Source of the DNA: Schmidtea polychroa
Taxonomy: Eukaryota
Assembly (NCBI GenBank): GCA_044892525.1
Contig: CM097885.1
Location: 23,190,001 to 23,254,000 of the forward strand
Direction: 5' to 3'
Length of the DNA stretch: 64,000 nucleotides
Part shown: one piece after another, positions 1 through 55,708 of the stretch
Position numbering within the stretch: the first letter of the stretch is position 1
Layout: every line of letters starts with the position of its first letter
Program-made: the position numbers and the translations under genes
Notes under the pieces: model-generated
Seen by the model: only the letters and a program-made list of their open reading frames with translations
Databases searched by the model: none
What the model was told of the DNA's origin: nothing

Positions 1-459
1 GTAGATCGTAGCTGGATCCAATGCGAGTTGCTCGCTCAATATAAGTCAGTGTAGGGTGGATTAGAGTTTTGTGATTTGCTTACTTTAAAATTTAAATAAA
101 TTAATATCTTTGAGTTATATATGCTTAATCCGACCACATATACATATCCATAGAGATTCACTCATTCTTTGCTAATATAAACTTTTTGGCGAATTTTTTT
201 ATTCTATAAAGATGGTGTTTTTGTTGGAATTGTCACTTACCTTTTTTCGGTCTCATAGTGATTTCGTTAATTTTTCATATTCTCATGTTTTGTCTCTGGT
301 TGTTTTTAGTAATTATAACTGAAAAACCAAACTAGAAATACCTAAACAGAATTATAAAATCAATTATCCTGGAATCATGCTTGTTAACGATTTTCGATGA
401 TCAATATTTTTCCAATTGTTATATTCTTGAATTTCCCACTCAAAGTTAAAATCTTCCTC

Positions 460-1316
460 AGTAGATGGATTGGGCACCGCTAGCACAGTACCCCCCCCCC
501 TCCCCCCGTCGGTAAGATTTTCAAAAATATTCTAAGTCTAAAAGTACATTTTTTTCAAGGTCAAAGTTAAACAAAGACATATGACTCATCAAGGTCATTG
601 AAACAAAGACCATGACTCATCCAATGACTCATCAAATTTCCCAAGGTCATTTAAACAAAGACTATGACTCATCAAGGTCATTTTCAAGGTCATATGACTC
701 ATAATATGACTCATCAAGGTCAAAAAATTTTCTCAAGGTCATTTAAACAAAGGCCATGCCTCATCAAGGTCATTTTCAAGGTCACATGTCTCATACCATG
801 ACTCATCAAGGTCATTTTCAAGGTCATATGACTCATCCGATGAGTCATAAAAATTTTCAAGGTCATTTAAACAAAGACCATGACTCATTCAAGGTCATTT
901 TCAAGGTCATATGACTCATTCAAGGTCATTTTCAAGGTCATATGACTCATTCAAGGTTATTTCCAAGGTCATTCTCAAGGTCATATGACTCATACTATGA
1001 CTCATCAAAAAATTTCAAGGTCATATGACCCATACGATGACTCATCAACATTTTTCAAGGTCATTTTCAAGGTCGCATGACTCATCCAAGGTCATTCTCA
1101 AGGTCATATGAGTCATCGCGATGAGTCATCAAGGTCATATTATTATTTTTAAAAATATTATTATTTTTATTATTATTTTTAAAAAATATTATTATTTTTA
1201 ATTTTTTCAAAGTTCCCGTCAACGAAAATTAATAATCGATAGCTCATTTTAAAGCTCAATCCAAGGCCTTTCGAATGAGCCATATATCTTGTTATTAAGA
1301 TTATTATTTCTAAAGA

Positions 1317-1377
<61 letters not shown>

Positions 1378-1555
1378 CTATATACACCGAGTCTATATAC
1401 TCCGTGTCTATCCGACAAAATATTTTGTCCCCCTATGGGTAATGCTCACAAGGGTACTGGTCACGCTCAACAAATCAACAAATCAACAAAACATACATTT
1501 ATTTAAACAATAAAATAATGTAAAATTAACAAAGGTAAACTAAATATTGATGTAC
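460..1555 (+). repeat. Left TIR of Polinton A with TGACTCA/CAAGGTCA arrays and an (ATT)n tract
   Basis: Reverse complement matches 17046-17843, with a different number of repeat units. Confidence 0.93.
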
Positions 1556-2001
1556 TACTATTCGCAGCAATATTGTTAGAAATTGGTAACGATGAATTGA
1601 TTTTCAGATATTCTATTGATCCTTTGATTGTTTGAATTTCTCTTAATAATAATTCAATCTTTTTTAACAAATAATCATGCTTCTTATCAATAATTTTCAT
1701 ATTCTTTTTATTTTCAGCAATAGAGTTATTGAAAACCTCAATATGATCAATCAATTTAATTTTTATATTTTGTATATATTCAAATGATAGTTCATAACTG
1801 TTTTCTAAATTCTCCAATCTTTGAGATATTCTTTTTCCTGGATGCTTTGACCATTTTGGTTTATCGAGAATATATAAAATATCCATCAACTTGGCAGTAT
1901 TCGGACAAACACATTGATTTATTAAAAGACTCCACTGTTATTGTTGTATTGTGTGAGCACACACTCGTTATAATAATTAGCAATATGAATATAGTTTTCA
2001 T
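1503..2001 (-). pseudogene. Frameshifted signal-peptide / coiled-coil / hydrophobic-tail protein
   Basis: ATG at 2001 gives MKTIFILLIIITSVCSHNTT...; a 1-nt frameshift near 1865 joins ORF 1503-1889, which ends NSSTSIFSLPLLILHYFIV. Confidence 0.6.
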
Positions 2002-2106
2002 GGTGTATCAAATCAAAACCTTTCTTTTACATTTATAGTCTATCAACCAATCAAAATCATACAGTATTAGTATAAATAAAACATCATATTTTAAATTATT
2101 GTAAAA

Positions 2107-2621
2107 ATGTCTAATTTTATGGAAAATCTTTTAAGAGAACTCGTCAACAAGAATATTATGGAAAGCCTCTGTTTCCTGGTCGATCGGACCGAAAAGATCA
2201 TAGAAGGTAATCACATTGATTATGATAATGTGATCAATTCCGATTGTCTCGAAACGAAGAAATTCTATTTTAATAGGATTTTTAACTACCTATAAGACGA
2301 GGAGATGAAGTGGACCCGAATACTAGTAGGGTTCGCTTATATGAAGATAATAATTGAAAAAAGTCTATGGGACTCCGAGCACTATTATCAGTGGTCTCAA
2401 GAAGTAATACTTTTATAATCTATATTTTATTAATATTTATTTTCTAGATAATCAAGTCAAAGTTTCAGCCATGGATTGAAGCCAATGGCGGATGGGGCGT
2501 GCTGAATCGACTCGCCAGAAATGCAAAGGAATTAGATCAACAGAAAATCAAATTTAAAAACTATATTAAACTTGCAACAGGTGTTGCTATTTTGTATGTT
2601 TTATGTCGGTTTTTTAAATAA
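2107..2621 (+). pseudogene. Bcl-2 family protein, two exons (intron 2404-2447), in-frame TAA at 2293
   Basis: BH1-like DEEMKWTRILVGFAY, BH2 PWIEANGGWGVL, C-terminal anchor LATGVAILYVLCRFFK. Confidence 0.85.
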
Positions 2622-2698
2622 AAATTAATATAGTTATTTTGTTTGATTTTTAAATAAAATTTTAAATAAATTTACAAACACTAATTAACTAAGATTTA

Positions 2699-3084
2699 TT
2701 AATTAACACATTCGCAGTCTTCATCTCCACATTTCATTATATTTTCAACGACATGATCAATACAATCATTCGTAATATTATCTTTAGATTCATCTTTAGG
2801 TTCCTCTTTAGGTTCCTCTATAGGTTCATCTATAGGTTCATAGATTTCCTCATCAATTTCTTGAGTATCGGTTTCTTGAGTTTCTTCCTCATCATCAAAT
2901 CCTTTATCTTGACTCTCAACTAACCAGCTGATATTTAAGGAATTTGTAATAGATAATATGTCCTCAATTTTCACACCAGATATTTCTGCTAACTTTTCCA
3001 ACAAAAAGTTGATTAAAAATTCTAAATAATAAATAATTCGGTAATTAATTAATCATGTTAACCTTTTTCTGCAGTCATTTTCAT
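2699..3084 (-). CDS. Acidic hypothetical protein, two exons (intron 3022-3062)
   Basis: GT-AG splice joins MKMTAEK to the ORF in frame; E/D-rich with a Cys-rich end. Confidence 0.6.
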
Positions 3085-3212
3085 CACTTTAAAACTAAAT
3101 TATAAGTTTGTTTATAGATTTTCTTTGTTAAATTTGCATGTCATTTGCATTTATGTTGCAATTAATAAAGAAAAAAAAACAAATCTGACTAATACATTTA
3201 TTAAATATAACA

Positions 3213-3623
3213 TTAAAATATTTGTGAAAGTCTAGCAGACATAATTTTCCAAATAGGAGAATATACATCATTATTATCAACTTTATATCCCTGGATTGCA
3301 ATTGTTATATACCTATTTTCATTTTCTTTGAAACTGATTTCATCAAAAGCATCATAAAATCTTGCATATCTATTTTTGAACCATGCATGTTGATTACACG
3401 ATAGATTCGAATCTATCCGTTTAAAAACATCATCAATAGTTTTGACATCAATCATTGAAAGCGTGCCGGATAAGAATTCAAATTTAGTTGGAATTAGCTT
3501 GACTGGTGCAACCAATTTCATATTGATTTCTTCTTTCAAAAAATACATTTTGTAGTTGTGGAACATTTGAACTCGTTGTACCATTTCTTTAGGTTTTTCG
3601 GTGCTTGAAATTTTCTTGGTCAT
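3213..3623 (-). CDS. Hypothetical protein, possibly OB-fold ssDNA-binding
   Basis: Clean 136-aa ORF with CCAAT and TATA upstream and AATAAA downstream; the fold is inferred only. Confidence 0.55.
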   Translation of the reverse strand: MTKKISSTEKPKEMVQRVQMFHNYKMYFLKEEINMKLVAPVKLIPTKFEFLSGTLSMIDVKTIDDVFKRIDSNLSCNQHAWFKNRYARFYDAFDEISFKENENRYITIAIQGYKVDNNDVYSPIWKIMSARLSQIF

Positions 3624-3851
3624 CGTGAATAATGAATAAATTTAAATGTTACAGGGTTTTTATACCTTTGACTCATGCCTATCAACCAATCAGATTATAG
3701 CATGTCTTTGTTTAAATTGCATTCAAAATGCATTGATGTTGCATTGTCACATGTTCTATTATTTTTATTAATGTTTTATTATTATTAATGTTTTATTATT
3801 TCTATTATTATTATTATTATTAATTTTTTATTATTAATGTTTTATTATTTC

Positions 3852-3884
<33 letters not shown>

Positions 3885-3901
3885 TTTATTATTACTATTT
3901 C

Positions 3902-3940
<39 letters not shown>

Positions 3941-3984
3941 TATTATTTCAAATATAAAAAAGATAAAACACAATAAAAATACAT

Positions 3985-4403
3985 TTATTGGTAACCTAAA
4001 TCTACAATCCGGGAGTAGTGAAACCTTCTCAGAGTTTTCACTAACTCCCATTCGACATATCGCCGATATCGATGGGCACAGCATGAGCATCCGATGATGC
4101 ACTGGTACTCCGGCTCCATTTGTTTGATGGTTCTGTTTATCTTTATATCCCACAAGAACTGGTGAAATACCTCCATTATTCTAATTTGAGTTGTGTAGAA
4201 AATGAGGTCCGGAATTATTTCTGCTTCTCGATCCTTGATAATTTCAATAATTTGAGGATAATAATATTTTATCCTATTGATCATAACTTCTAAATATTTT
4301 TCTAAAATAATAAATAGTAAATAATGTGAAAATAAAAAAATTAAAATTTACCATAATCGTCGATATCTTTCATGAGGTTTGCAGCGCTTGGTAATTTGTA
4401 CAT
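3985..4403 (-). CDS. Hypothetical protein, two exons (intron 4302-4351)
   Basis: MYKLPSAANLMKDIDDY splices in frame into ORF 3985-4284; Cys cluster CIIGCSCC. Confidence 0.6.
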
Positions 4404-4477
4404 GGTGTTGAAAAAATGAATCCTAAACAAAAAACCGTTTGTTTAAATCAATCAATAACCAATTAGAAATTAACCAA

Positions 4478-4915
4478 TTAGAAATCGACTAATGAAATTA
4501 TCTCATTTCGAACATTGTCAACAAATTCTCTATACTCCAAATTTCTCAACCCCAGCATGACAACCTTTCCACTAGCAAACACGTTGACACAAATAGGGTT
4601 ATATTTTAATAGTCTTAGTGCTGGAAACAATTCCGGTTCAAACATACAATCACATTTTTTCGACATGTTATATAGATTGATACTATGTCCCATATCCATA
4701 GTAACGGTAATTGATTGGATTGTAATATTATTTATTCGATATTGTAATTTATTAATATCCAAAGGTTTCTTACATCCCATGATTCTGCATTTACCAGTCT
4801 TGAAAAATATTATCGGATATTTCCCACTTCTATCGATAATTTGCTGGGGTTTCCCTGGTGGGAACCTCATATTCGATACATCAAAATTTCCTCGATAATT
4901 TATATTTGCTAACAT
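4478..4915 (-). CDS. TATA-binding-protein-like protein (two TBP repeats)
   Basis: FEPELFPALR...VNVFASGKVVMLG and IIFFKTGKCRIMGCK match the TBP repeat pattern YEPELFPGL...LIFxSGKxVxTG. Confidence 0.88.
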   Translation of the reverse strand: MLANINYRGNFDVSNMRFPPGKPQQIIDRSGKYPIIFFKTGKCRIMGCKKPLDINKLQYRINNITIQSITVTMDMGHSINLYNMSKKCDCMFEPELFPALRLLKYNPICVNVFASGKVVMLGLRNLEYREFVDNVRNEIISLVDF

Positions 4916-5014
4916 TATTAAATCATTTATGAAAATTAGTCTTTATATATAAATTGAGCACGAGTTCATTAAATCATCGAATATAAACAAATACACATTT
5001 ATAAAATCTTTGAA

Positions 5015-5641
5015 ATGGAATTAAGAAATGATGCTGTATACCAAATCGTTGGTCCGAGTGGTAGTGGAAAAACATTATTTGTTTGTAAATTACTAAAATC
5101 CAATTTATTCAAATCAAAATTCAACAGGATTTATTGGCATAGGGGTGCTGATGAAGAACATGGATTAACTCAATCAAGTTTCTGTAAATTAAAAAACATG
5201 AAAATAGTAAAGGGATTTGATAAAAACTGGTCCAGCCGATTAAAGAAGGGTGATGTCATTATTATTGATGATTTGTATCAAGAAGCTAATAAAGAAAAAG
5301 ATTTTAATAACTTATTTACAAAGATCAGCAGACATGTCGATGTAACAGTTATTTTCATAACACAAAATCTATTTCATCAAGGTGGGGCACATCGAACACG
5401 TAATTTAAATGTACAGTATTTAGTTATTTTCAAGAATCCTAGAGATGCAACAGTGATTGATTTTCTTGCACGTCAAGCATACCCTAACAATCGTAATTTT
5501 CTTATCAGTGCATTTCAAGATGCTACAAAAATACCTCATGGATATATATTTCTTGATTTCACACAACAATGTCCCGATGATTTACGAGTAAAAACAGATA
5601 TTTTCAACCCAAAAGGTGCCATGGTTTATAAACAAAGTTGA
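5015..5641 (+). CDS. A32/FtsK-like packaging ATPase
   Basis: Walker A GPSGSGKT, Walker B IIIDD, SRH and ITQ motifs. Confidence 0.93.
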   Translation: MELRNDAVYQIVGPSGSGKTLFVCKLLKSNLFKSKFNRIYWHRGADEEHGLTQSSFCKLKNMKIVKGFDKNWSSRLKKGDVIIIDDLYQEANKEKDFNNLFTKISRHVDVTVIFITQNLFHQGGAHRTRNLNVQYLVIFKNPRDATVIDFLARQAYPNNRNFLISAFQDATKIPHGYIFLDFTQQCPDDLRVKTDIFNPKGAMVYKQS

Positions 5642-5659
5642 AAACCTCTATGAATAATA

Positions 5660-5857
5660 ATGTTTCTAAAAGCAAGGGTGAAAAATATTAGGAAATTAAG
5701 AAAAAGTATTAGAAAGACTATTAAAGTTCCAAAGGTTCCACCAACAACTAGTTATACACCATCTAAAAAACTTGTAACTGAAAATTTCTCTGCAATGAAT
5801 CTTATTTCGAAAAATCCTAAACCTAAACGTAAAACCCGTAAAACCAGTAAAAAATAG
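5660..5857 (+). CDS. Small highly basic protein (candidate core protein)
   Basis: K/R-rich 65 aa within the structural cassette. Confidence 0.5.
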   Translation: MFLKARVKNIRKLRKSIRKTIKVPKVPPTTSYTPSKKLVTENFSAMNLISKNPKPKRKTRKTSKK

Positions 5858-5892
5858 TTAAAAATCATCGAAGTTTTCCATTTTTTAATGCA

Positions 5893-6159
5893 TTGTTAAA
5901 GGCCCCGAGTATGAAAAGAATGAATATATTGCAATCATTCCCAAATTTTGTTGTCGATGATTTACTCAATATTATACTTAAAGTAGTCAAAGGCAAAATT
6001 AAAATCAGTAAACATAGGAAACCATTATTATCTTTAGTAAATAATAAAAATCGTAAGCAAATGAGGAAAATTATATATAAACAACAAGGTGGATTTATTG
6101 GTGCCTTGATACCTCTGGCATTATCATTATTAGGTGGAGTTGTAGGAAATCAATCATAA
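5893..6159 (+). CDS. Basic protein with adenovirus pX-like hydrophobic tail
   Basis: Ends QQGGFIGALIPLALSLLGG; the start is uncertain. Confidence 0.6.
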   Translation: MLKAPSMKRMNILQSFPNFVVDDLLNIILKVVKGKIKISKHRKPLLSLVNNKNRKQMRKIIYKQQGGFIGALIPLALSLLGGVVGNQS

Positions 6160-6220
6160 ACAATGGGTGCTAATCCTTCATTGCCCGACATTAAATTTAA
6201 TTTTAAATCTTCTTGTTGTA

Positions 6221-6594
6221 ATGGAGAAGATTTGGACGAACCCAGAAGACGAAGCCGGTTTCGGTGGAGTGGCAAAATTAAACAAAAGAGTTCCGAATTC
6301 GAAAAAAGAAACCCAGATCAGCTTGCGTACAGTTTGAACAAACGATGCGGAAAAGATTTCCAACAAGAGCGTATAAAACATTTGGTATTGACGATTTATG
6401 GCAAATGGATTTGATGGAGATGATACCTTATTCGAAAATTAACAATGGGAATAAATATACTTTAACATGTATTAATGTATACAGCAGGTTTGCACGAGCA
6501 ATACCAGTCAAGGCAAAATCTGCAGAAGAAATGTCCAAGGCAATTAATATTTTATTTAAAGATGGACATCCTAATAACTTGCAAACAGATTTAG

Positions 6595-6680
<86 letters not shown>

Positions 6681-7264
6681 TTAGGTAAAGAATTCACTAC
6701 TCGGTACATTCTCAATACAAAGCTGCCCATGTTGAAAGATTTAATCGAACATTGAGAGATAGATTAAAGAAATTGTTCGTGCATCAAGGTAATAAAAAAT
6801 GGGTAAATGCTTTACTGAAAATAATAACAAGTTATAATCATTCATCACATCGAGGACTGAATGGATTGAGACCGGTTGATATTACATCAAAAACACCATT
6901 ATCTAAAAAATCTGTAAAAATTGCAAAACCTAAATATAAAGTCGGTGACCATGTTAGAATTAGTAAAATTAGTGCATCACCATTTATTAAAAATTTTGAT
7001 ACAAATTGGAGTGATGAAGTCTTTGTAATTTCAAAAATAAATACTAAACAGAATCCTGTAATGTATGTCATCAATGACAATGATAATAATATTGTACAAG
7101 GGAAATTTTATGAGCAGGAATTACAAGTCATTCCTCCCCCAAAAGTATTTAGAATTCAAAAAATATTGAAAACTAAAAAGGTCGGTAAGGATAAACAATA
7201 CTATATCAAATGGCACGGTTATCAAAACCCGTCATGGATATCGTCAAAAGACCTAGTAAAATGA
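6221..7264 (+). pseudogene. Retroviral-type integrase with chromodomain; intron 6595-6684; small deletions/frameshifts
   Basis: WQMDLM, QTDLG/KEF, HVERFNRTLR, C-terminal YYIKWHGY...SWI. Confidence 0.92.
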
Positions 7265-8265
7265 ATTTTTATATTATTTTACCTAGCAATAGCTGTCCAC
7301 TTATTCATCCAGATAATAAAGCCAGCAAATTCAGGGTCAATCTTCAAAATCCGATATATTTGGATAATAGCTGGGAAGTTGCTCTGTTGGATTTTACATT
7401 TGTATACCAAGCCTTTCCATTTTATAGTAAGGCTAAAATTGGATACAAAAAGAATGAGTGGCAGGATAGATTATTGTCTATGATCATTAATAATGCAGAT
7501 GATGAAGTTCGGTTGTCTAATTCAACTGATCCAGCTGTGAAATTGTATATTAACCATCCATATATAGTAGTTGAATGTAAACATTATCCTTTTACTGTAA
7601 CATTTGATAGTTTGGAAATGGCAAAACGATTGGAATTAAAAACCCAAAGTCATAAAGTTCTTTCCGATAAATTCACTGTGCTACGACCGGGATATTCCAA
7701 AACTGTACAGCGATTTGAACCAATTTTCTTTACAGTTTCATATCCGGGTATAACGTCTGGTACATTTGAGTTCAAAGATAATTTATACATTTCGAAATTG
7801 GATGAATTACAGACATATTTAAAACAAAGTGGTTTATTTAAATCATTGGAAATATCAGACAGATTCAAATTCAGTTTGAATCCCGAATTTACTGAAATTA
7901 CTTTTGATGCAGATCTAATAAAAACATTAGGATTATCAAAAGCAACATATGCTCAAGATGATCAAGGTACCCTAGCTCCGAAAATAATTAAACTTCACCA
8001 ACAAATGTTCATCTATAGTAATATTGTTGATCCTGTAATTGTTGGCGATTCTTTGGTCCCACTCCTGAAATCTGTTTGGATTGAAAAATATGAACATGAT
8101 GAAGTAGTCAATATAAATATCGATAATCCCATCTATTTACCTGTGTCAACCTCATGTATAAACAATATAGAAATAAATATACGTGATGATTCTGGTAAAT
8201 TAATCGCATTTCCAAAAGATTCAAAAACTCATTTAACATTACATTTTCGTAAAGTAGATGGCTAA
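7261..8265 (+). CDS. Minor capsid protein (penton)
   Basis: MNFYIILPSNS start; FIYSNIVDPVIVGDSLVPLL and IEINIRDDSG motifs. Confidence 0.85.
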   Translation: MNFYIILPSNSCPLIHPDNKASKFRVNLQNPIYLDNSWEVALLDFTFVYQAFPFYSKAKIGYKKNEWQDRLLSMIINNADDEVRLSNSTDPAVKLYINHPYIVVECKHYPFTVTFDSLEMAKRLELKTQSHKVLSDKFTVLRPGYSKTVQRFEPIFFTVSYPGITSGTFEFKDNLYISKLDELQTYLKQSGLFKSLEISDRFKFSLNPEFTEITFDADLIKTLGLSKATYAQDDQGTLAPKIIKLHQQMFIYSNIVDPVIVGDSLVPLLKSVWIEKYEHDEVVNINIDNPIYLPVSTSCINNIEINIRDDSGKLIAFPKDSKTHLTLHFRKVDG

Positions 8266-8623
8266 TTCGGATATTATAAGTATGTATAGTGGTAGCCAAT
8301 CTGGCGGTGAATTAACATATTTTATTGGTAAACAGTACGGATCAGGATAATTGAGAACAATTGGTAGATTTTCACTTCCTATTCTTAAACGTATTGGTAG
8401 TTTTGGTATGAAAACTGCTAAAGATGTTATTATGAATGAACAGAAAATATTACCATCTCTAAAATCAAATGCTTTAGCAGAATTAGGGAAAGTTTTACCC
8501 GGGGTTGCAGGTATGTTTCAAAAACCAGCTCCAGTTCCAGCTCATGCTCCAAAACGTAAAAGACATGGAATATCACGTATAAACAAACGAATGAAAGGCC
8601 ATGGAACTATATTTGCAAAATGA
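8258..8623 (+). pseudogene. Core-like protein with QxGG/QYGSG motifs, premature TAA at 8348
   Basis: MANSDIISMYSGSQSGGELTYFIGKQYGSG*LRTIGRF; the copy at ~39150 has Trp at the stop position. Confidence 0.7.
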
Positions 8624-9842
8624 TTTGTGGTAAATCTGAATTATGTATATTTGATAGACCGTCGCCCCAGGCTGTAATAGAATTTGGGGCGTTTGAGGAA
8701 GTTTTTCCAATGAATTCAATTACTGATAGTAGAAATGATATAGAGTTTTATATTAATGGTTCGCAAAATGAATATTTAGATTTGAACGATACTTTATTGA
8801 CTGTTCAGATCAAGGTTATAGATAAAGATAAAAAAGCTTTGGGTGATGCTGCTGATGCAATACCGAACAATTTCATGTTTCATACTCTTTTTAAAGATGC
8901 TGTGTTGGGATTTAATAATATCAAGATTGAAGGTGGTAATAATACATTCAGTCACAAGGCTTTGATAGAAACTATTTTAAATTACAATTCCGATACTAAA
9001 AATACATATCTTACTCCAATGGGATATGCTGCAACCGACGATGAAAGAAAAAAGTGGATTAAAGGCTCAAAAACATTCACCATGTGTTCATCGTTACAAC
9101 TCGATTTTATGGATCAACCGAAATATTTGCTTCCAGGAGTTAATGTCCACATTCAATTGAAAAGATCCGATTCTGCACTAACTCTTACTAGTGCTACAGG
9201 TGCACCAATATGTCAATTAGTTGATGCAAAATTATTGGTGAGAAAAGTACGAGTAGACCCCTCAGTATTAGCAGGTCATCAATTGGGTCTTAATTCAAAA
9301 CATGCAATTTATCCATTAAAAACAAAGGAAATTGTACAATTTGCTATTGCTAAAGGTGCTTCATCAGTCTATAAAGAACAAATATTTGGTGACAGAAGAA
9401 TGCCTAATTTTATTCTGATAACATTTCAAAGTGAAGCACAATATAATGGATCATATACTGCGTCCAGCTCAATTTTCAAAAACTTTAATGTTACATCATT
9501 GACTTTGTCGAAAAATACTGATTATAGAGAAACATATATTCAAGATTTCGAGAATTACAATTTCTGTGCGACATATATGCAGAGCATTGTTAGAAATCTG
9601 GGTTATTTAGATAAAAATTTGAATTGTGGAATAACTCTAGAAGATTTTAAAAGCAAATACCCATTTTTACATTTGTTTTAGCCCCTGATTTTGATTTAAA
9701 TCAAAGTCAATTACCTCAAAATGGAAATTTACGACTGGATATAAAGTTTGCAAAAGCTATTACTGAACCAGTACATGTTATAATATATGGAGTATTTGAA
9801 AATGAAGTTCAAATTACTGCAAATAGAACAGTGTTGGTATAA
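8620..9842 (+). pseudogene. Major capsid protein (double jelly-roll), frameshift near 9667
   Basis: KSELCIF, YLDLNDT, DFMDQPKYLLPGV; the shifted tail GNLRLDIKFAK...ANRTVLV ends at 9842. Confidence 0.9.
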
Positions 9843-10241
9843 ATGTATATTGAAACACAAAAAGTTGTCATGGAGTAAGTTGTTCTTTTAAACTCTGGAT
9901 TTATTTAAGTAGTTCTGTTCAGGTCAATAAAATCGGAAAACAGATATTGGGAAATGAATTTGTTGGAGTTTTTCCTCTAAATAAAATTCCATATTTGAGC
10001 AATAATCAAGCAATAATCATCAATACGCAATCGTCTCATCTTGGTGGAGAACATTGGATAGCTATATATGTGAAACCTGGTAAAATATTAGTGTTCGATC
10101 CTATGGGTTTTTATTACCCGGCTTTGTTGATATCAAAACTACAAACAATGGGGTAATAAAACTATGTTTCAAAATCCCTTGACCCAAACATGCGGTCAAC
10201 ATTGTTTAGCTTGGTTATTGTACAAAAAATTTGATGTTTAA
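9843..10241 (+). pseudogene. Adenain-like cysteine protease, disrupted
   Basis: GEHWIA (His), VFDPMG (Asp), and QNPLTQTCGQHC (Gln/Cys) in another frame. Confidence 0.85.
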
Positions 10242-10340
10242 AGAAAAAATGTTTAATAAATTTGATGTTTAATAAATGTATCCTTTCCTTTGTTGTTGTG
10301 TTATTATTAATATTATTATTAATATCATTATTAATATTAA

Positions 10341-10377
<37 letters not shown>

Positions 10378-10403
10378 ATTAATATTATTATTATTATTAT
10401 TAA

Positions 10404-10446
<43 letters not shown>

Positions 10447-10789
10447 GTGAAAAATATTATTATTTTTTAATTAATTTTATTATTATTCTAATAAATATTA
10501 TTATTTGTAACATAAAGACTGCCTTTGCCTGAGGCATGCACAGTGCAAGTTAACAAAGGCATGACTAACAAAGGCAGTCACATGTAATTCTGAGTGATTT
10601 ACATTACATACATGCATGCGTGTGATTGGTTGAGTGATTAAAATATTCAGTGTATATGTGTGTGTCTATATTCTCATTGGCTGGGACAGGAAAATATTCA
10701 TTCTCTTTATAAACATCGACAAATCTAAAATTTGTCACAATTATTTTAAAATTTTGAAATTTCAAAATCAATTTGATTAATATTCTAAA

Positions 10790-12046
10790 ATGGAAAAGAA
10801 CGATAATAATCGAGCGTTGAGAGGTCTTTTGACTAATGGTAAATTATTATTATTTTTATTCTATTTTATTTAGATCCTTTCAACTGGTTCGCAGTTACCG
10901 AAGACGAATCAATGTTGAACGTGGATCGGATTTTCGGTAAATTTATCATTTTAATTTTTATTAAAATTAATTTTATATATATTTTAGAACCTATTATTAT
11001 TATTAGCGATGATGAAGATTTAATATTTATTGAAGAAATTAATGCCGAAGATGAATCGATTTTAAATATGGAAAATATCGGTAAATTTATCATTTTAATT
11101 TTTATAAATATTAATTTTATATATTTTAGAACCTATTATTATTAGCGATGATGAAGATTTAATATTTATTGAAGAAATTAATGCCCCAGTTAATGATGTT
11201 GGGCAAAACAAGGTTTTCAAAGAAAAAAGTAAATTTATTTTACTTTAGTATTTTATTTTTAAAAATTTTATTTTTTAGCGTTTAATTTTGATATTGATGC
11301 CGAGGAAGTGGATGAAATAAATGATTCAGATAATACCCTCACTTCTATTGAGGAGGTGGACGAAATGAATGCCCTCACTTCTATTGAGGAGGACTCTGAT
11401 TCCGATATGGAATCGAAATGTAAGACTTATTTATTTTTTATATATTTTTATATATTTCTTTAAAATTTTATAAGCACTTTTTAAATATTTTCATATTAAT
11501 TTCATTATTTTCTTAAAAACTTTTATAAATTACTTATGATGAATTTATGAAGAAAATGATTTATGAAGATAATGATTTATGAAAAAAATGATTTATGAAG
11601 AAAATGACGAAAATTATGAATTTATGTTGAAAATGAATTATGAAGAAAATGGTGAAAATTATGAATTTATGTTTGATGAAAATGATTTATGAGGAAAATT
11701 ATGTTGAAAATAATTATATGACGAATATATGATGAAAACGATTTATGAAGAAAATTATGTTGAAAATAATTATATGACAAATATATGAATTTATGATGAA
11801 AATGATTTATGAAGAAAATGACGAAAATATGACGAAAAATATGAATTTATGATTATATGACGAAAATTATGTTGAAAATAAATATGACGAAAATTATGAA
11901 TTTATGATGAAAATTATGAATTTATGAAGTAAATACTACGTTTCTGAAAATAATGAAATTAATATAAAAATATTTAAAAAAGTGATTACGAAACTATAGT
12001 TATAAAATAATTCTTGTAGTTTGCAATGTGCATCTACATTAGTTAA

Positions 12047-12094
<48 letters not shown>

Positions 12095-12169
12095 CTGACC
12101 CTTCTACTATAGTCTACAGTAAGCATGTAGCTATATAGTAGTCTGCAGTGAGCATGCAGCTACTTCTCT

Positions 12170-12243
<74 letters not shown>

Positions 12244-15200
12244 CTTACTCGTCTAATATTTAACATATTCATATAATAATAATCTGACCCATATACTAAA
12301 ATCTCTCTAATATTCTCTCGAATATATTAACCTATTTTCTATAAGGATTTATCATCATTTGTTATATAGTTCATTTGAATTAAATAACAAATGATGATAA
12401 ATCCTTATCGATGTAACAATTAATAACAATTAGAAAAAGAGAATAAAACTTTAATTTTATTATTTAACAGGTAGACTATACCCAAATTATTGTCAATCCT
12501 CAATTGGACATAACGATAAATGTCATCGCACCATGAAAAAGTATTACAGAAAGACGTTTAATTCAGTCAACTTTTTTATATGCCCCAAATGCGTGACTAG
12601 CGAAAAAATACAATATAGGGAATTTTTTAATAAACATCATAGTCACTTAGGGCAATTTTCGATTTCAAAAAATGTTTTATTTAAAAAAATAAATAAAAAT
12701 AAAAAAAAATTACAAAAAAATTTAGAAAAAAATATTATTAAAAAAAATATTAAAAAAGAAAAAACAGATACTATTAAAACAGATACTATTAAAAAAGATA
12801 CTATTATTATTAAAAAAGATTTAAAAAATATTAAAAAAAATATTATAAAAGAAAAAACAGATACTATTAAAACAGATACTATTAAAAAAGATACTATTAT
12901 TATTAAAAAAGATCCTATTATTATTAAAAAAGATTCTATTAAAAGACCTGCTGGTTTAATTAAAAATTATATTCCTAATAAATTATCGCGACCTGAAGTG
13001 ATAGTCATCAGCAAAGATGAATGTGTAGCTTCAACATCTTTCACACAACACGCACCCATTACACAACACGCACCCATTACACAACAAGAAGTGATAGTCA
13101 TCAATGATGAATGTGTAGCTTCAACGTCTTTCAACATATGTCAAATAGGCGGCTCTTTGTTTGAACCTATGGTTGAATCCGATTTGAACGGATCGCGAAA
13201 AACTTTAAAATTGGATATTAGAAATCAAAACTTGGTAAAAATAACCCTAACATCAAAAATTGAAGAAAGATTAATAGAGGAAATAGAAAAGATGGGCAAT
13301 GTAAAAATTCAATTTACAATTTTAATTAAATTTGAAAAAGATGGGGAGATCCGGGATAATTATTTTTCAAACAATGCGCAAGTTTTTTCAGCAAATTTTA
13401 TAAACGAGGGGGTGAGCAAATTAAATGAAAAGATTGAGCAATTCACCTATTTAGGAAGCGGGTGGCGCGTAATGAATATTTTAGAGATAGATTTTATTTT
13501 AACGAAATACGCACCCGTTAGTAGATTATCCGGACATAGCTATATAAAAACCCCATCAGCATTAAAATTAAAACATGCAATAATTAATGTAAAAAACAAC
13601 GACCATAAGTGTTTCTTATATAGCATTCTTGCACTTTTAAAAAGAGAAGAAATAGGTCGTAATCACCAAAGAGCCGCCAAATATATAGAATTTTTACCTC
13701 TATTAAATTATGATGAAAACACAGATTGCCCGATGAGGTTATGCAACATTCCCAAATTTGAAAGGAAAAATCGCGATTTAAACATGAGCATAAACGTTCT
13801 TTCGTATAATCCAGCCAGTTCTGATTGTGATATTTCTCAGGATTATGTAGCTCACCACCCTCATCTTAATATCATACATCGTTCCAAGGTTATAGATGGT
13901 AGGCCGATTTATTTATTACTTTTGAGTAATAAAGATAAATATCATTATACGGCAGTGACAGACTTGGACAAATTAATGAATTGTCATTTAAATGAAAATG
14001 TAAATGTTCAAATAAGGTGTAACTGGTGCCCACATTGTTTAAATGGCTTTAGATATAAGAATGCTTTCGATCAGCATGTTGCTCTATGCTGTAAAAATCA
14101 GACTGGCACAACCTTGTATACACTTCCTAAAAATAAGGATTTATTATTCACAGATTACGCAAAAACCGTTACACCTCCCTTCGTAATTTATGCCGATTTT
14201 GAATCGGTTTTACCAGAACATGAAACATATCATCAAATACATTTACCCATATCAGCAGGTCTTTTATTAATTAATAATTATACAAACACTAAATTTTATT
14301 ATTATTTTTTTGGACCTAATTGTATTTTGGATTTTTTGAGGAAAGTGGAGGAAATTGCTGTCACAATTGTCCTGCCATATTATGAACTCGAAGGTCATAA
14401 AGGTATGTCTACTTTGTCTTTTGCTCAGGAGCGTGCCTTTCGATCTACCACTATTTGTTATTTGTGTAAAAAAGCTATTATTAATCCTGTGAGAGATCAT
14501 TGCCATTTTACAGGTAGATATGTCGGAGCGGCATGTAGGAAATGTAATGTCTCTCGCAGGATTAATAAATTGTTACCTGTTGTCTTTCATAATTTACGAG
14601 GCTATGACCTCCACCATATTTTAAAACATGGTCTCAGTGATTTTCCCCTTTGGGAACTTAAAATTATACCTACCTCTACAGAAAAATTTATATCTTTAAT
14701 TGCATATATTAACAAATTGCCTGTTCGTTTTATTGACAGCATGCAATTTGTTAATTGCTCTTTAGCCAAAGCTGTGAAAACCTTAACTACTTTTCCGTTA
14801 ACTTCGTCTGTCTTTCAAGGGTCGATGATTCACTCTAAAGGTATCTTTCCATATAATTTCGCTACTTCTTTGGATGTTCTTGAATCGACTTTAGAATTAC
14901 CTCCTATTTGGTCTGATGTTACGGAAGATCAGTACGCTGAGGCTCAACTAATGTGGAGTCAGCATAACTGTAATAATTTGTTATATTATATGTTAATCTA
15001 CCTAAAATTGGACGTATACCTCCTCGCAGACTATTTTCAGCAATTCCGCGGTAAGGCAATTGCTTACAATGGTCTGGATCCTCTTAATTTCTACGGGATT
15101 CCCGGTATGTCATGGGCCTCAGCGCTTATGACATTAACGGAACCCATAGAACTTTTGCAGGACATGGAAATGTATAATTTCTATGAGGGAGGTATCCGGG

Positions 15201-15874
15201 GTGGGTTAACATTTGTTAACAAACATTACACGGCTACTTCAGATGATACAGAATTATTGTACATTGATATAAATAATCTGTATGGTTGGGCTCTTAGCCA
15301 AAATCTTCCGTATGGTGATTTTTCTTGGGTGAATAATAACTTAAATGATGTTTTACTTGAATGTATGAACACGGATATTGATAACCTTCCATATGGGTAT
15401 ACTATGGAGGTCGATATCGATATTCCGGAATGTATGCATGACTTTTTGAATGATTTTCCGATTGCGCCGGAAAAGTTGTGCCTGCCTAATTCAAAAGTTG
15501 AGAAGCTGATGCTCACGCATTGGCCAAAGAGGAACTATGTTCTTCATTGGAGGCTTCTCAAATTGTATATAGAATTAGGTGCGGTTGTTGTAAATATTCA
15601 TAGATGTATAAAGTTTAAACAAGGACCTATCTTTAAATCCTACATAGACACCAACACCACTTTACGATCTCAGTCTACTAGCGAGATATATAGGGACTTG
15701 TTTAAATTGTATAATAACAGTCTGTACGGTAAATCCGTTGAAAATCTGAAAAAACGAATGAATTTGAGGTTGTGTAATTCATCCGAAAAGATGATAGTAT
15801 ACTCCTCAAAGCCGACTTTCAGAAAGTCTATAAGAATCGATAACGATCTGATTGTATTTATATATACATATTGA
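10790..15874 (+). pseudogene. Protein-primed DNA polymerase B with five predicted 5' exons; C-terminally truncated
   Basis: Exons 10790-10838, 10874-10936, 10988-11080, 11130-11228, 11279-11419, 12471-15874; YADFES, FHNLRGYD, YIDINNLYG and KLYNNSLYGK present; DTDS motif absent. Confidence 0.9.
11530..11930 (+). repeat. Degenerate tandem repeat (GAAAATGATTTATGAA-like) in the large pPolB intron
   Basis: Visible reiteration of the unit. Confidence 0.8.
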
Positions 15875-16039
15875 ATAAAATTTGTAATCAGATTTTTTTT
15901 TTTAAATTTTTTAAGTATTTGTTGTTTTATTATAATTTTTATATTTAATGGTGATTTTTATATAGTCTGCAGTGAGCATGCAGCTATATCAGTATTTTTT
16001 TTATATAGTCTGCAGTGAGCATGCAGCTATATCAATCAC

Positions 16040-16088
<49 letters not shown>

Positions 16089-16103
16089 CTTTAAACAGTT
16101 TGC

Positions 16104-16134
<31 letters not shown>

Positions 16135-16147
16135 TAATAATAATAAT

Positions 16148-16214
<67 letters not shown>

Positions 16215-16363
16215 CTTTAAACAGCTTGCAAGGTTACTAGTCATGCTTATTATACATTTGATGGTTACAATTTCTACATTTTGAAAACTATATTTTGATT
16301 GGCTATCACAATTTTATAAATGTAAGAACAAAAGTAATTTAGTTATTAAGAAATTTATTACTA

Positions 16364-16998
16364 ATGATTTCTATAAATAAAACTGATGAATGTGTAACAC
16401 ATTTGGTAACTTTATTATTTTGTCAATATTTTTTTATATATACCATTTATAGCAAGGAAGTCCTACTAGAAATAAGGAAAAATTATGTCCAACCTATTCT
16501 GAAATTTCATTGAAATTTTTTAACACAGTTGAAGATTTTATAAATAATCATGATACTTACAGTGATAAGCAACTCATAAATATTTTAAAGATTTTCAAAC
16601 ATTCCTCTATTGAATATTTGTTTGATTTATTTAATTATGAGAAATCCATTTTAAAGTTATCTTGTTATTTAATGTACTTAGAAAAAATATCAGTAAACAA
16701 TGATTCACTGAATGAATACTTTTGGAGTTGTATGCATTTAAGGTTGAAACCTAGATATAGTAGATTGATTTATGATTGGATAGCAAAAACCGATTTGATT
16801 GAAAATAAGCTAACGAAAAAACTGAACGATGTTAAGAAAAGGTATTTGACTTGTTCAATTTGTAAAGAAAATCGAGTTTCGGTTTTGTATTTACCATGTG
16901 GTCATGTAATTGTTTGTTCTAAGTGTCACGAGAAGAATGTTCGCAAGTGTCAAGCCTGTTCAACACTGATTAATGAATATCATACTATATATATTTAG
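16364..16998 (+). CDS. IAP-type C3HC4 RING protein, two exons (intron 16406-16452)
   Basis: CSICKENRVSVLYLPCGHVIVCSKC...CQAC...IYI at the extreme C-terminus; the upstream ATG exon splices in frame. Confidence 0.85.
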
Positions 16999-17045
16999 TT
17001 TACCTTTGTTAATTTTACATTATTTTATTGTTTAAATAAATGTAT

Positions 17046-17199
17046 GTACATCAATATTTATTTACCTTTGTTAATTTTACATTATTTTATTGTTTAAATA
17101 AATGTATGTTTTGTTGATTTGTTGAGCGTGACCAGTACCCTTGTGAGCATTACCCATAGGGGGACAAAATATTTTGTCGGATAGACTCGGTGTATATAG

Positions 17200-17251
<52 letters not shown>

Positions 17252-17843
17252 TCTTTAGAAATAATAATCTTAATAACAAGATATATGGCTCATTCGAAAG
17301 GCCTTGGATTGAGCTTTAAAATGAGCTATCGATTATTAATGTTTGTTGACGGGAACTTTGAAAATAATTAAAAATAATATTTTTTAAAAATAATAATATG
17401 ACCTTGATGACTCATCGCGATGACTCATATGACCTTGAGAATGACCTTGGATGAGTCATAGGATGACTCAGATGACCTTGAAAATGACCTTGAAAATTTT
17501 TGATGAGTCATAGCATGAGTCATATGACCTTGAAAATTTTTTGATGAGTCATAGTATGAGTCATATGACCTTGAATGAGTCATATGACCTTGAGAACGAC
17601 CTTGAATGAGTCATGGTCTTTGTTTAAATGACCTTGAAAATTTTTATGACTCATCGGATGAGTCATATGACCTTGATGAGTCATAGTATGAGTCATATGA
17701 CCTTGAAAATGACCTTGTTGAGTCATATGTCTTTGTTTAAATTTACTTTTAGACTTAGAATATTTTTGAAAATCTTACCGACGGGGGGAGGGGGGGTACT
17801 GTGCTAGCGGTGCCCTGTGCCAGCGGTGCCCAATCCATCTACT
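17046..17843 (-). repeat. Right TIR of Polinton A
   Basis: Inverted copy of 460-1555. Confidence 0.93.
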
Positions 17844-18206
17844 TTCCTCGTATAATAAAATAACGTTTGCAGTATTTCAGTTTTACAATATCACTACAAG
17901 TAAAATTGAAAGAAAGTACTTTCAAATCAGTGACAAGATGGTTTAGGTCTATTATCACCGAAACTCGATTATTAAGTTTATTTATGATTAGCGTACACAT
18001 GAGTTAACTAGAAAGAGAAGAAATAAAGGACATTATTGAAAATTATATTAAGATTTTGCTGGCAAGATAGACATTATTAATATTATATACTTATTAAACT
18101 ATATTTACAGAAAGTATTACTAAAACCTTTTTTAACCAATATGTAATAATTTCAATTATCAAAGGAAGATAACAACATGTATTCGGTATCCATCAATCAA
18201 TTAGAC

Positions 18207-22451: not shown

Positions 22452-23578
22452 CTAATTCTTTATTTTTGAGTCCTTGTTCTCTTTAACAATTGCAAATATA
22501 GATGTGCAATAAATCAAACAATCATTTGCTGATATTCTCTTATTTAAATTATAATCCAGCATTTTGTACAATAGTGGTAATAACTTATCATTCTCATCTA
22601 TACCTAATTTTAAATGCAATTTTTTCTCCGGAATTTCAATATTGTCTATTTTAATTTCGCAATTCATAATTTTCTGTTCTTCGTCATTTGGAACGCCCAA
22701 AATTTCAAAAATCTTTATTAACTGATCAGTTTCATTTTCTCCTTTGAAGATTACATCAAATAGAATCATTTCCATGAAAACAATAGCCATTGACCAGATA
22801 TCTATCGAAAGATTATACATTTGATTTTTACATAACAACTCTGGAGCTCGGTAATATCTAAAATTTATTCATTTTAAAATTAAAAAAAAAACAATGAAAA
22901 AAAAAATTTTTAAAAATTTATATAAAATAATTAATACCTTGATCCAACATTGACTGCATTCGATGAACCGGATTCAATTAATTTTGAACATCCAAAGTCA
23001 GCAATTTTAATTAAATCTTGATCAATATCTACTAAAATATTTAGACTTTTAATGTCTCTATGTCCAAAACGTCGAGAGTGCATAAAATCTAAGGCAGATA
23101 GCAAACTAAACATGAAATATTTCCTAGTTTCATTCGATAGAATAATTTTCTCATATCGCAATCTTTGAATTAAGTTATACAAAGATTCTGGCATCAATTC
23201 CATTACTAAACATTGTTTTATACCGTTTTTTGTTGCGTAATTAAAATGATATTTTAAACTAAGAATATTTCTATGACGATCACTAAGTAATGAATGGATT
23301 TCTCTTTCTCGACCGTTTCTATCACTTCTTTTTATGGCCAATATTTGAATCTTTTCTTCATCCAATGAATATTTTGTAGGCAATATTTTTACGTAAGCAG
23401 CAAACACATTTGCGAATGTTCCGGAACCAATATCTTTAATACATTTGACTTGCAATAGAACCTCGGAATTAGAATGTATCACATAAGATTTATATCTGTT
23501 TGAAAATTGAGAAAATGTATTTGTTGTGATTTGACTATGCGTTCTACTGAAATTTGATCGAAAACTGTATACGCTCAT
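22452..23578 (-). CDS. Divergent GSK3-like CMGC Ser/Thr kinase, two exons (intron 22858-22937), 348 aa
   Basis: GSGTFANV, AIK, HRDIKSLN, DFG, spliced SRYYRAPEL, IDIWS. Confidence 0.88.
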
Positions 23579-24748
23579 TGAAAATTAAAAAAGAATATTT
23601 TAAAAACAAATAATTTTGATTAAAATTTTATTTAGTTGCAATAAATTTTTACAATCAATAATTAAGATATTATTTAATATTTACGTAACACAATTATAAA
23701 TTTTGGATAAATTTTAAAAAATTTCTTTTCCAAAACCTGTATTATATAATTTACGTAAATAAAGTTTCAAGTGTAATTATTTTTTATTTGAAATATTACT
23801 TGTAATATTTATGTAACTTAAATATTATAATTTCAGGTGTAGTTACTTTTAATTTGAAAAAAAACCTACACTCAATTATGCACATTTAACTTTACGAAAA
23901 TATTTTAAATATTTAATCAATGACATATGGTAGGTTAAAACAATTTTTTTGTTTAATAAAAACACAAAAAGCTAAACAAATGAAATATATTCTCAGTCTG
24001 TCGTCATAACGGAAACAAAAAATGACATAATAGTTATAATTTAACGAGTTAATTAAACAATCTCAATAAATTCTTTGCTGATTGAATGATAATTTTAGGG
24101 AATTATGATTTGATCGCCAATGTTTCAAATAAAATTCTTTCCCATTTATTATTAAAATTTTAAAATTTTAAAATCTTTTAATTCATTTATCCATTTAAGA
24201 TGTTTTTATATGCTCAATAATATTACTTCTTAAAATCGTCTGTTTTTGAACCCGTATCTGGAGAACACCGTAAATTTTTCTCATTTATGTAACCTTGCAC
24301 CGATTACATGAAAACTTATACTTCAGATCAAACACTAAATATATTGGGATATATAAATGTATTCCTAAACACATTTAATGATTTTCAAAATCTATAATCA
24401 TTTCAATAGAGAAAACTTGAAGTATCTAAAACCTTTCGAATATGGAATAACTAAATTATGAGATTTTAAATGTTTATTATCATTAAATGAACTATAATTT
24501 TCATTGTTTTTATCAAGCGCAATTAAAAGGGAGATCAATGGTTTCCTTAGTCAACCTTCCCACAAAACCCTTTTAATATTCATTTTTATTCAAAAAAGAT
24601 GTGTACTTTTACTAAATTTTTCAAACTTAGACAATAATGACCATGATTTAAAAATCAAGCCTTTTATCAGCGCCGTACCATCGCATGTGCAACAAGGGTA
24701 ATCGAACAGGGTAAAATATTATATGCACTACAAAACTAAAATTAATTG

Positions 24749-35179: not shown

Positions 35180-35406
35180 TAGATCATGACTCATTTCCGA
35201 GAATTTCAAAAAGTATATGCCTTCTAGATCACTTAATAATATTTTAAAAATTGATGAATCATCGAACGAGTCATTGTCTTTTTCCAATGAGCTTGATGAG
35301 TCATCGAATGAGTAATATGCCCTTGAATGTTTCATAGCCTTTGTTTAAAATTTTATAAATTTTTTTTACCAGGGGAGGTGATTTAGCGGCAACACTTCCA
35401 TTTACT
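35180..35406 (-). repeat. Orphan degenerate Polinton TIR
   Basis: TGACTCA/TGAGTCA motifs, G-run, end CCATTTACT resembling the CCATCTACT end of element A. Confidence 0.65.
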
Positions 35407-38400: not shown

Positions 38401-38743
38401 TAAATATTCAGTTTGCGAACAATTAATATACAACTCAATATAATTTCTACTATCAGTAATTGAATTCATAGGAAATACTTGCTCAAATGCCCCAAATACA
38501 ATTACAGCCTGGGATGATGGTCGATCAAATATACATAATTTAGATTTATCACAAATCATTTTTCAAATATAGTTCCATGTCCTTTCACTCGTTTGTTTAT
38601 AAGTGATATTCAATGTCTTTTACGCTTTGAAGCATGAGCTAGGGTTGGGGCTGGGTATGTATCTTTTTGAAACATACTTACAACCCATGGTAGAACTTTC
38701 CATAATTCAACTAGAGCATTTTATTTTAGGGAAGGTAATATTT

Positions 38744-53543: not shown

Positions 53544-53617
53544 AACCTCAGATGTGATTTGAACCGCTATCCATTTGAACCACTGTGCCAGTCTATTCCC
53601 ACTGCGCCATCAAGGTT
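53544..53617 (-). ncRNA. Putative Pol III small RNA 1
   Basis: A-box TGGCGCAGTGG, B-boxes GGTTCAAAT, terminal stem AACCTT/GAGGTT, T9 run downstream. Confidence 0.6.
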
Positions 53618-55691: not shown

Positions 55692-55708
55692 TATTTTAAC
55701 ATTTTAAA

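Follow-up and report, generated by a model that had tools for sequence, protein, structure and literature searches.

Predicted introns in core genes, a TBP-like gene and a conserved candidate promoter box in a Polinton of Schmidtea polychroa

Background

The 64,000-nucleotide stretch of Schmidtea polychroa DNA analyzed here (the window; GenBank assembly GCA_044892525.1, contig CM097885.1, positions 23,190,001 to 23,254,000; host genome 781 Mb, AT-rich) contains at positions 460-17843 a Polinton/Maverick element that appears to be interrupted by introns even in its core genes, and that encodes a short relative of the TATA-binding protein, TBP. The locus raises the question of how an element of this kind is transcribed, and what part introns and a TBP of its own may play in that. 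The best explanation, favored with moderate confidence, is a clade of Polintons that is transcribed by the host, that gains introns, and that may switch on its late genes through the TBP-like protein and a short promoter box.

Results and Discussion

Identity of the element

The element has the termini AGTAGA...TCTACT and is flanked on both sides by the hexamer TTCCTC, a 6-bp target-site duplication (TSD). Its terminal inverted repeats (TIRs, approximately 1096 and 805 nt) are identical at 753 of 768 aligned bases (98%). Long AG...CT TIRs and the 6-bp TSD occur together with a family B DNA polymerase (PolB) of the protein-primed kind, an rve integrase, a packaging ATPase and an adenovirus-type protease, which identify the element as a Polinton/Maverick with a PF03175/Alpha-type polymerase. 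Intronless core genes, a descriptive and not a defining trait in PMC8097293, are not found here.

Introns

Eleven GT-AG introns of 35 to 1051 nt were located (Table 1), all of which join their exons in phase, as claimed by a first-pass annotation that counted about ten. They are AT-rich (2-26% GC) and resemble the short AT-rich intron of a host kinase gene in the same window. Splicing was judged by comparison of DNA copies of the element in the genome (sisters) and of more distant relatives. The same sites are occupied in dozens of copies, which indicates that the introns were present in a replicating ancestor; on these comparisons they evidently hold phase while length varies, and their sets differ between lineages.

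In 28 of 29 sisters the Bcl-2 intron, with its GT-AG ends, occupies one shared site; in three further loci it is 36, 48 or 51 nt long, each time with an in-frame stop; two of these loci are 68% identical in protein and have different intron sequences. An intronless Bcl-2 homolog is collinear across the junction to within one residue, and the splice joins the exon bearing BH1 to that bearing BH2 and the transmembrane (TM) segment. Protein databases returned only an unspliced read-out of exon 1, made of gene calls from DNA that are uninformative on splicing. The protease intron is found at the same codon in two of nine metagenome relatives (L088 and L096, 51-52% identity) and is absent from the other seven, whose N-termini are collinear with the spliced form. 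This intron is thus common to three elements, in contrast to lineage-specific introns of the integrase, of the TBP gene (L115, 1 of 81 loci) and of gene D, which encodes a putative single-stranded DNA-binding protein (SSB; intron in L088).

The polymerase leader has short introns of 35-57 nt and a long one of 1051-1471 nt across copies. Its exons are stop-free and all in phase 1 in five of seven close sisters (one of the seven was read without the second leader intron and one without a start anchor), and stop-free in three of the four completed members of a subfamily approximately 78% identical, in which the first leader intron was located by direct inspection in four of five loci; one member of this subfamily has an extra leader exon and a frame break. 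The two subfamilies have duplicated different acidic leader exons, which is possible because these exons are units of symmetric phase. In gene E the intron is 49 or 50 nt long, with a difference of 1 nt seen in 24 of 29 sisters; all 21 exon indels are multiples of three, as are 15 of 16 in gene C; the RING intron is 46-50 nt long across five sisters. From these comparisons, the Bcl-2, protease and leader introns are very probably spliced.

The integrase insert lies two residues after what we take, from the motif, to be the catalytic Asp. Its removal restores Q-T-D-x-G-K-E-F, as found in all 14 uninterrupted relatives, so that for Bcl-2 and integrase alike the earlier statement that splicing restores conserved motifs stands. 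Of 20 sisters, 17 could be anchored, and all of these carry the insert, at lengths of 48-264 nt; none of the 14 metagenome relatives has it, nor do the other families scored in the genome. It is probably spliced, with a lesser but real chance that this insert, alone of all, is not. Inherited and repeatedly gained, the core-gene introns appear to be new relative to a literature that calls Polintons intronless.

The TBP-like gene and the ATAAAC box

The TBP-like protein (Pfam TBP domain, E 3e-15; Foldseek E 1.4e-9 to TBP) is modeled with high confidence (predicted local distance difference test, pLDDT, 95.8) as the two-lobed saddle fold of the TBP family, which confirms the original call. Homologs number 108 at 37-97% identity, mostly of 145-165 aa, and F38, F97, F113, E93 and E95 are kept in 91-94 of 94 of them; these Phe and Glu residues presumably correspond to contacts with TATA and TFIIB. 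Among 81 TBP-bearing loci an ATPase was seen in 26, an integrase in 15 and a major capsid protein (MCP) in 11, and the gene is kept across elements with ATPases only 29-74% identical. By this distribution the TBP-like gene marks the whole clade, and is not a one-off capture. In IMG/VR a single distant TBP locus was found, and the ATPase had no relative there.

The sequence TATAAAC occurs nine times in the element, which a rough estimate puts near the expectation from base composition, so that only position is informative: seven of the nine sites are 32-102 nt before a start (binomial P 3e-9, in a test of position that is post hoc). In TBP-bearing relatives, which are not all independent, ATAAAC is found upstream of all 25 ATPase genes, all 7 MCP genes and all 6 core-protein genes, of 10 of 14 minor capsid genes, 3 of 4 protease genes and 5 of 66 TBP genes, against 6.3% of random windows and 0-1 occurrences when the structural genes are scored on the opposite strand. 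In a second Polinton in the window, which has no TBP-like gene, none of five genes is preceded by the box at promoter distance. Genes A, Bcl-2, D and RING have CCAAT and TATAAA promoters instead of the box. Together, the TBP-like gene and the conserved box upstream of packaging and capsid genes suggest temporal regulation.

The TIRs hold 33 TGASTCA and 35 CAAGGTCA motifs, versus 1 and 0 in the 15.5-kb interior. We read TGASTCA as an AP-1-like site and CAAGGTCA as resembling a nuclear-receptor half-site. Elsewhere in the window there is a short array related to the TIR motifs (35247-35337), and a segment of approximately 80 nt from the inner end of the TIR recurs at 48502-48580 and 50678-50755 (81-82% identity).

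Decay of the copy and size of the family

At least seven genes of the copy at 460-17843 are disrupted. Gene A has a frame break near 1913, Bcl-2 exon 1 an in-frame stop, the integrase frame breaks near 6314-6343 and 6690, the pX-like gene an in-frame stop and the MCP a frame break at approximately 9660, near the gene end; the protease is broken downstream of its intron, and PolB has lost its 3' end including motif C. Most of these breaks are confined to the present copy. Among sisters, gene A is open (at least 160 aa) in 24 of 27, Bcl-2 exon 1 in 27 of 28, and the MCP end in five of the six where it was located; the frames of their capsid and ATPase genes are for the most part intact, and extra sequence is present at the polymerase end of all five RING-anchored sisters, with motif C in the one translated. 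These comparisons rest on pieces of sister elements of 0.6-3.7 kb.

All 150 TBP matches scored are 99-100% identical (4168 candidate places in the genome), and all 40 Bcl-2 DNA matches scored are 97-100% identical (1507 candidate places). A further DNA query turned up 1067 candidate places, of which 40 were again scored; 150 and 40 are floors and 4168, 1507 and 1067 are candidates, none of them a copy number. By these comparisons the element is a decayed member of a young, very high-copy family.

Several loci (L011, L050, L051, L053 and L062) are internally deleted derivatives, and in L050 and L053 the Bcl-2 region is joined to the polymerase at one shared junction, which suggests an amplified non-autonomous form. 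A fragment of a sister element, from minor capsid gene to MCP, is at 37720-40555 of the window on the minus strand (77-85% DNA identity); it was considered as an informative second copy and rejected, being decayed.

Accessory genes and selection

The Bcl-2-like product has the BH1-BH2 core and TM tail of its family, with a degenerate BH1. Eight of the ten PDB matches of exon 1 and all 40 of exon 2 are to the Bcl-2 family, and scores to PF00452 (cut-off 31.4 bits) are 30.2-31.1 in sister loci and 32.6-34.5 in the 68%-identical subfamily. Elsewhere in the genome an intronless 152-aa Bcl-2 open reading frame (ORF) that exceeds the Pfam cut-off is found at three places, each time approximately 10 kb away from an integrase that belongs to another family (G000:C1:15405873, C1:247541801 and C2:50149356, the last being L183).

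Gene D (136 aa; model pLDDT 87.8), which the first-pass annotation did not name and which adjoins the TBP-like gene in 21 of 81 relatives, is probably, on its modeled structure, a replication SSB. Its top structural matches are CP312R, DUF2815, Enc34 SSB and gp2.5 (Z 7.2-6.3, root-mean-square deviation 3.0-4.7, 101-123 residues aligned); Foldseek gave E 0.046 against PDB and 33 viral matches at E<=0.001, and sequence searches found no match in Pfam, PDB or Atlas. Gene E had no match in the Atlas search. The RING domain is best matched by those of cIAP and XIAP (4e-9), with PDB matches confined to residues 118-179; no BIR domain was found among Pfam or PDB matches, and the product was rejected as an IAP, for which "IAP-type E3" is a fair name. 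The RING gene also occurs in head-to-tail arrays with a period of approximately 1 kb, of up to dozens of mostly open copies (G000:C1:8681361-8731010, C2:188140895-188165958 and C3:1769839-1774550), a gene satellite derived from the Polinton. Patterns resembling SUMO-interacting motifs (SIMs), a hydrophobic core with an acidic tail, are present in the leader exons and the main polymerase exon as a sequence pattern only, and the surface reading of gene A rests on hydropathy.

Among variants shared by sisters, the nonsynonymous/synonymous counts are 2/4 and 6/5 in Bcl-2 exons 1 and 2, 5/7 in D, 13/35 in E, 0/14 in the ATPase and 0/7 in the integrase. Private variants give 16/2 and 6/2 in the two Bcl-2 exons, 27/6 in D and 16/4 in the integrase. 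The depletion of amino-acid change among shared variants is consistent with purifying selection on the Bcl-2-like gene, D, E, the ATPase and the integrase, and private variants in A, Bcl-2 and D appear near neutral.

The first-pass annotation had read the element as one TIR- and TSD-bounded unit holding a toolkit (TBP-like, Bcl-2, IAP-RING, SIMs and a surface protein) for a regulated viral life cycle that manipulates apoptosis, SUMO and transcription. The bounds and the genes hold, the accessory genes being shared by sister copies; the decay had been missed, and SIMs and surface protein stay at the level of patterns. Selection, proposed there as a check, is apparent for the genes just named and little or absent for gene C and the surface gene. 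The RING is of IAP type, without the BIR expected of an IAP. The regulated cycle gains from the TBP-like gene and its box as temporal regulation, while manipulation of apoptosis or SUMO stays a conjecture, with a degenerate BH1 and no BIR.

Proposed mechanism and alternatives

Under the favored explanation, Pol II would transcribe the clade in the host nucleus, and ordinary spliceosomal introns would have been gained repeatedly, core genes included; they may persist because replication is from DNA to DNA and involves no reverse-transcription step that would remove them. The early set (surface gene, Bcl-2-like, SSB-like and RING) would be fired by host factors through CCAAT and TATA promoters, and the TIRs, packed with AP-1-like and nuclear-receptor-like sites, would feed this early expression. 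The short TBP would bind YATAAACA and recruit TFIIB and Pol II to the late packaging and capsid genes. PolB and SSB would copy the genome by strand displacement, the integrase would insert it with the 6-bp TSD, and the Bcl-2-like and RING products may sustain cell survival or eliminate restriction factors. New introns would arise at AG/GT sites by a short duplication and (TAT)n growth. Sequence comparison establishes the gene inventory, the conservation of the introns and the box; the late switch, the anti-apoptotic and SUMO roles and any virion are inferred. A broader reading joins all of this into a widespread, undescribed clade of animal polintoviruses with a two-stage nuclear programme, a mini-TBP late switch and splicing-dependent polymerase, protease and integrase, in which splicing would gate timing and cell type, for example in stem or germ cells under AP-1 wound signaling, and in which the copies would preserve introns being born from AG/GT duplications and microsatellites; it is considered unlikely.

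Several points weigh against the favored explanation. Splicing, transcript starts and a virion are predictions from DNA alone. The (TAT)n insert of the integrase is a multiple of three and stop-free in 16 of 17 anchored sisters, and the test of length is therefore uninformative for this gene. The TBP-less control for the box is one element only, and ATAAAC may instead be recognized by a Forkhead factor or by the TBP of the host. Each of the Bcl-2 matches is weak by itself (Pfam E 0.01; PDB E 0.12 and 0.21), the BH1 reads KWTR for NWGR and lacks the glycine, and the Z scores of gene D (6.3-7.2) are under the tool's level of 8. Polymorphism counts are small; shared variants in gene C (12/2) show no purifying signal and those in gene A (4/2) a weak one, and the ratio of nonsynonymous to synonymous polymorphism of the TBP gene was discarded because its loci had been chosen by protein identity, which biases the count. 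Finally, Bcl-2, A, C and E were found in none of the 81 TBP-bearing relatives and RING in one (most of these loci are short), and they are therefore local cargo, not a toolkit of the clade.

This absence also favors a rival account, in which the introns are neutral passengers, the cargo is that usual for adintoviruses, and the element is an intracellular transposon only, with promoters read by the host and a TBP-like protein that is no late switch. Bcl2 and IAP cargo is already reported in adintoviruses, and Burro retroelements of planarians carry BCL2, BIR and SUMO-like domains. Against it stand a TBP-like gene retained while the ATPases around it diverged so far, a box that tracks packaging and capsid genes and not the TBP gene, and capsid and ATPase frames that are mostly open in sisters; this account is considered improbable but not negligible. 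A dependence on a helper, as in virophages, would mean that a large DNA virus infecting the same cell supplies the late machinery that reads the box, and is in line with virophage and Polinton-like virus (PLV) papers that treat late promoter motifs and with the resemblance of gene D to proteins of nucleocytoplasmic large DNA viruses (NCLDVs). The element encodes a TBP-like protein of its own, however, and spliceosomal introns in core genes together with CCAAT/TATA promoters argue for host nuclear transcription, so that a helper is given little credence.

Least credence of all is given to the view that the apparent introns are unspliced AT-rich or microsatellite insertions of decay, that the integrase insert at least is translated as poly-Ile, and that intronless integrases of other Polinton families move this one. 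The in-frame integrase inserts, the uninterrupted integrases of other families in the genome and the decay of the copy at 460-17843 would fit it, but inserts common to nearly all copies must be older than the insertion of those copies. Stops are present in the Bcl-2 insert at each of four lengths, conservation of the protease intron extends to proteins of 51% identity, and the integrase shows 0/7 shared nonsynonymous/synonymous variants despite inserts of 48-264 nt near the catalytic Asp.

If host transcription with intron gain and a TBP-box switch is the right explanation, gene calling that assumes no introns would take a lineage whose polymerase and protease are interrupted for a dead one, and core-gene introns would fix transcription in the host nucleus and not in the factory of a helper virus. 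The TBP-like gene with one box before packaging and capsid genes would offer a direct test of Polinton gene timing, and a many-copy family with a (TAT)n-filled insert at an AG/GT duplication a tractable case of intron gain, which is rarely caught in progress.

Comparison with known systems

The comparisons that follow cover the available parts of the papers cited by accession or DOI. Alpha adintoviruses (Eupolintoviridae) have in common with the element the TIRs, 6-bp TSD, PF03175 PolB, integrase, ATPase, adenain and capsid genes, and differ from it by its eleven predicted spliceosomal introns (five in the leader), its conserved TBP-like gene with box, and its SSB-like gene. Bcl2 and IAP homologs are reported as adintovirus accessory genes, and a TBP label appears in the legend of Fig. 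5 for non-animal MELD viruses, related midsize viruses (PMC8502044); in the same text no passage on spliced genes was found. The first-pass statement that apoptosis blockers and TBP mimics are typical of larger DNA viruses is not supported as worded in view of these reports, and since such cargo is already published, the toolkit is less surprising than had been held.

Intact Mavericks are described as without introns (PMC8097293; PMC10120064), and large surveys use prokaryotic gene finders because the genes are deemed intronless (PMC8097293; PMC10120064). Vertebrate Mavericks (PMC8097293) and endogenous DNA viruses of protists (PMC10120064) share the core genes, the size of approximately 17 kb, the TIR range and the TSD, whereas here core genes are interrupted in a replicating lineage. 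In nematodes, Mavericks that carry WASP/KRMA cargo (10.1101/2022.07.12.499685) have introns in cargo genes near a TIR, and their core genes are described as intronless. Maverick-polinton-like elements of dinoflagellates (PMC11957031) also have spliceosomal introns, but these are transposon-derived introners, acquired mostly after integration, in contrast to the short host-type introns found here, which are inherited by all copies and shared by distant elements. PLVs of cryptophytes carry group I introns. The expansion of Mavericks in Dugesia has been published (10.64898/2025.12.11.693146). Burro, a giant Gypsy of planarians (PMC6431247), is likewise a mobile element with BCL2, BIR and SUMO-like modules, but is a retroelement with a polyprotein, and its Bcl-2 domain has no detectable similarity to that of the Polinton.

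Cellular TBP (PF00352) has the same fold as the TBP-like protein, which is 145 aa long, approximately 22% identical, and changed in the first stirrup; T7 gp2.5, Enc34 SSB and CP312R of African swine fever virus (ASFV) appear to have the same fold as the 136-aa SSB-like protein at 4-10% identity. Repbase and subscription papers aside, no report was found of animal Polintons whose core genes have spliceosomal introns, or of a Polinton TBP with a cognate box. The present analysis contributes the protease intron shared across elements, the insert in the integrase, the counts of the box throughout the clade and the reading of gene D as an SSB.

Gene content and neighbors in the window

The features of the element are listed in Table 1. 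The MCP had no match in direct searches of Pfam, PDB, NCBIfam and phage libraries, and its assignment to the double jelly-roll class is indirect: its profile matches the neighboring MCP in the window (probability 78%, E 1.8e-5, 300 columns), which matches PF21738 at 1.2e-26. The polymerase had no match in PDB, NCBIfam or phage searches. In 14 of 81 relatives the candidate for a single jelly-roll minor capsid protein is conserved at the position where such a gene is expected, without a match in the libraries searched. The GGFIG-type motif of the core-protein-like ORFs is presumably a protease site. The relative L096 has, by eye, a candidate ubiquitin-conjugating E2 ORF and two tandem minor-capsid genes (222-722 and 5652-7687).

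Table 1. Features of the Polinton at 460-17843 (window coordinates).
Feature	Position	Strand	Remarks
Left TSD TTCCTC	454..459		
Left TIR	460..1555	+	18 TGASTCA and 23 CAAGGTCA motifs
Gene A, candidate surface/GPI-type (glycosylphosphatidylinositol) protein	1503..2001	-	signal-peptide-like N-terminus, coiled coil, hydrophobic C-terminus
Bcl-2-like gene, two exons	2107..2621	+	BH1-like, BH2, C-terminal TM
Bcl-2 intron	2404-2447	+	phase 0, 44 nt
Gene C, two-exon acidic protein	2699..3084	-	
Gene C intron	3022-3062	-	
Gene D, OB-fold	3213..3623	-	T7 gp2.5/NCLDV-type ssDNA-binding resemblance
Gene E, two-exon Cys-rich protein	3985..4403	-	
Gene E intron	4302-4351	-	
TBP-like gene	4478..4915	-	145 aa; head-to-head with ATPase
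TATAAAC box	4982..4988	+	33 nt before ATPase
Further TATAAAC boxes	3116 (-), 5627, 6076, 8157, 8578, 10708		
A32-type packaging ATPase	5015..5641	+	Pfam PF04665, 1.9e-7
Basic core-protein-like ORFs	5660..6159	+	GGFIG-type motif at end
rve integrase with chromodomain, overlapping MG-start ORF	6163..7264	+	Pfam PF00665, PF13683, chromodomain
Integrase insert, probable young intron	6595-6684	+	GT-(TAT)n-TTTAG between TTTAGGTA direct repeats
Putative minor capsid protein	7261..8265	+	position and homology to relatives
pX/PW-like small gene	8259..8623	+	
MCP	8620..9842	+	
Adenain-type protease	9870..10230	+	Pfam PF00770, 2.4e-5
Protease intron	9875-9912 (9909 alternative acceptor)	+	phase 2, codon 2, GTAAGT...AG
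Polymerase leader, five exons	10790..12470	+	acidic exons with SIM-like hydrophobic-acidic patterns
Polymerase-leader introns	10839-10873, 10937-10987, 11081-11129, 11229-11278, 11420-12470	+	all phase 1
Protein-primed PolB, main exon	12471..15874	+	PF03175, E 2e-18 on polymerase part
RING gene, two exons	16364..16998	+	C-terminal IAP-type RING
RING intron	16406-16452	+	
Right TIR	17039..17843	-	15 TGASTCA and 12 CAAGGTCA motifs
Right TSD TTCCTC	17844..17849		

The second, unrelated Polinton of the window (53567-63008) has an MCP (PF21738), integrase, ATPase, protease and minor capsid gene. On the minus strand at 41091-43334, an ORF has a weak Bcl-2 domain followed by a fusion glycoprotein of Monjiviricetes type (PF24664, 2.7e-45), an arrangement resembling the BCL2-env portion of Burro retroelements. 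An origin of the cargo from a nearby Burro-like fragment was rejected, there being no detectable similarity between the Bcl-2 domains. To the right of the element are a hAT transposase ORF of 642 aa (18617-20545, plus strand) and the host-like protein kinase gene with its short AT-rich intron (22452-23584, minus strand), which is GSK3-like by eye.

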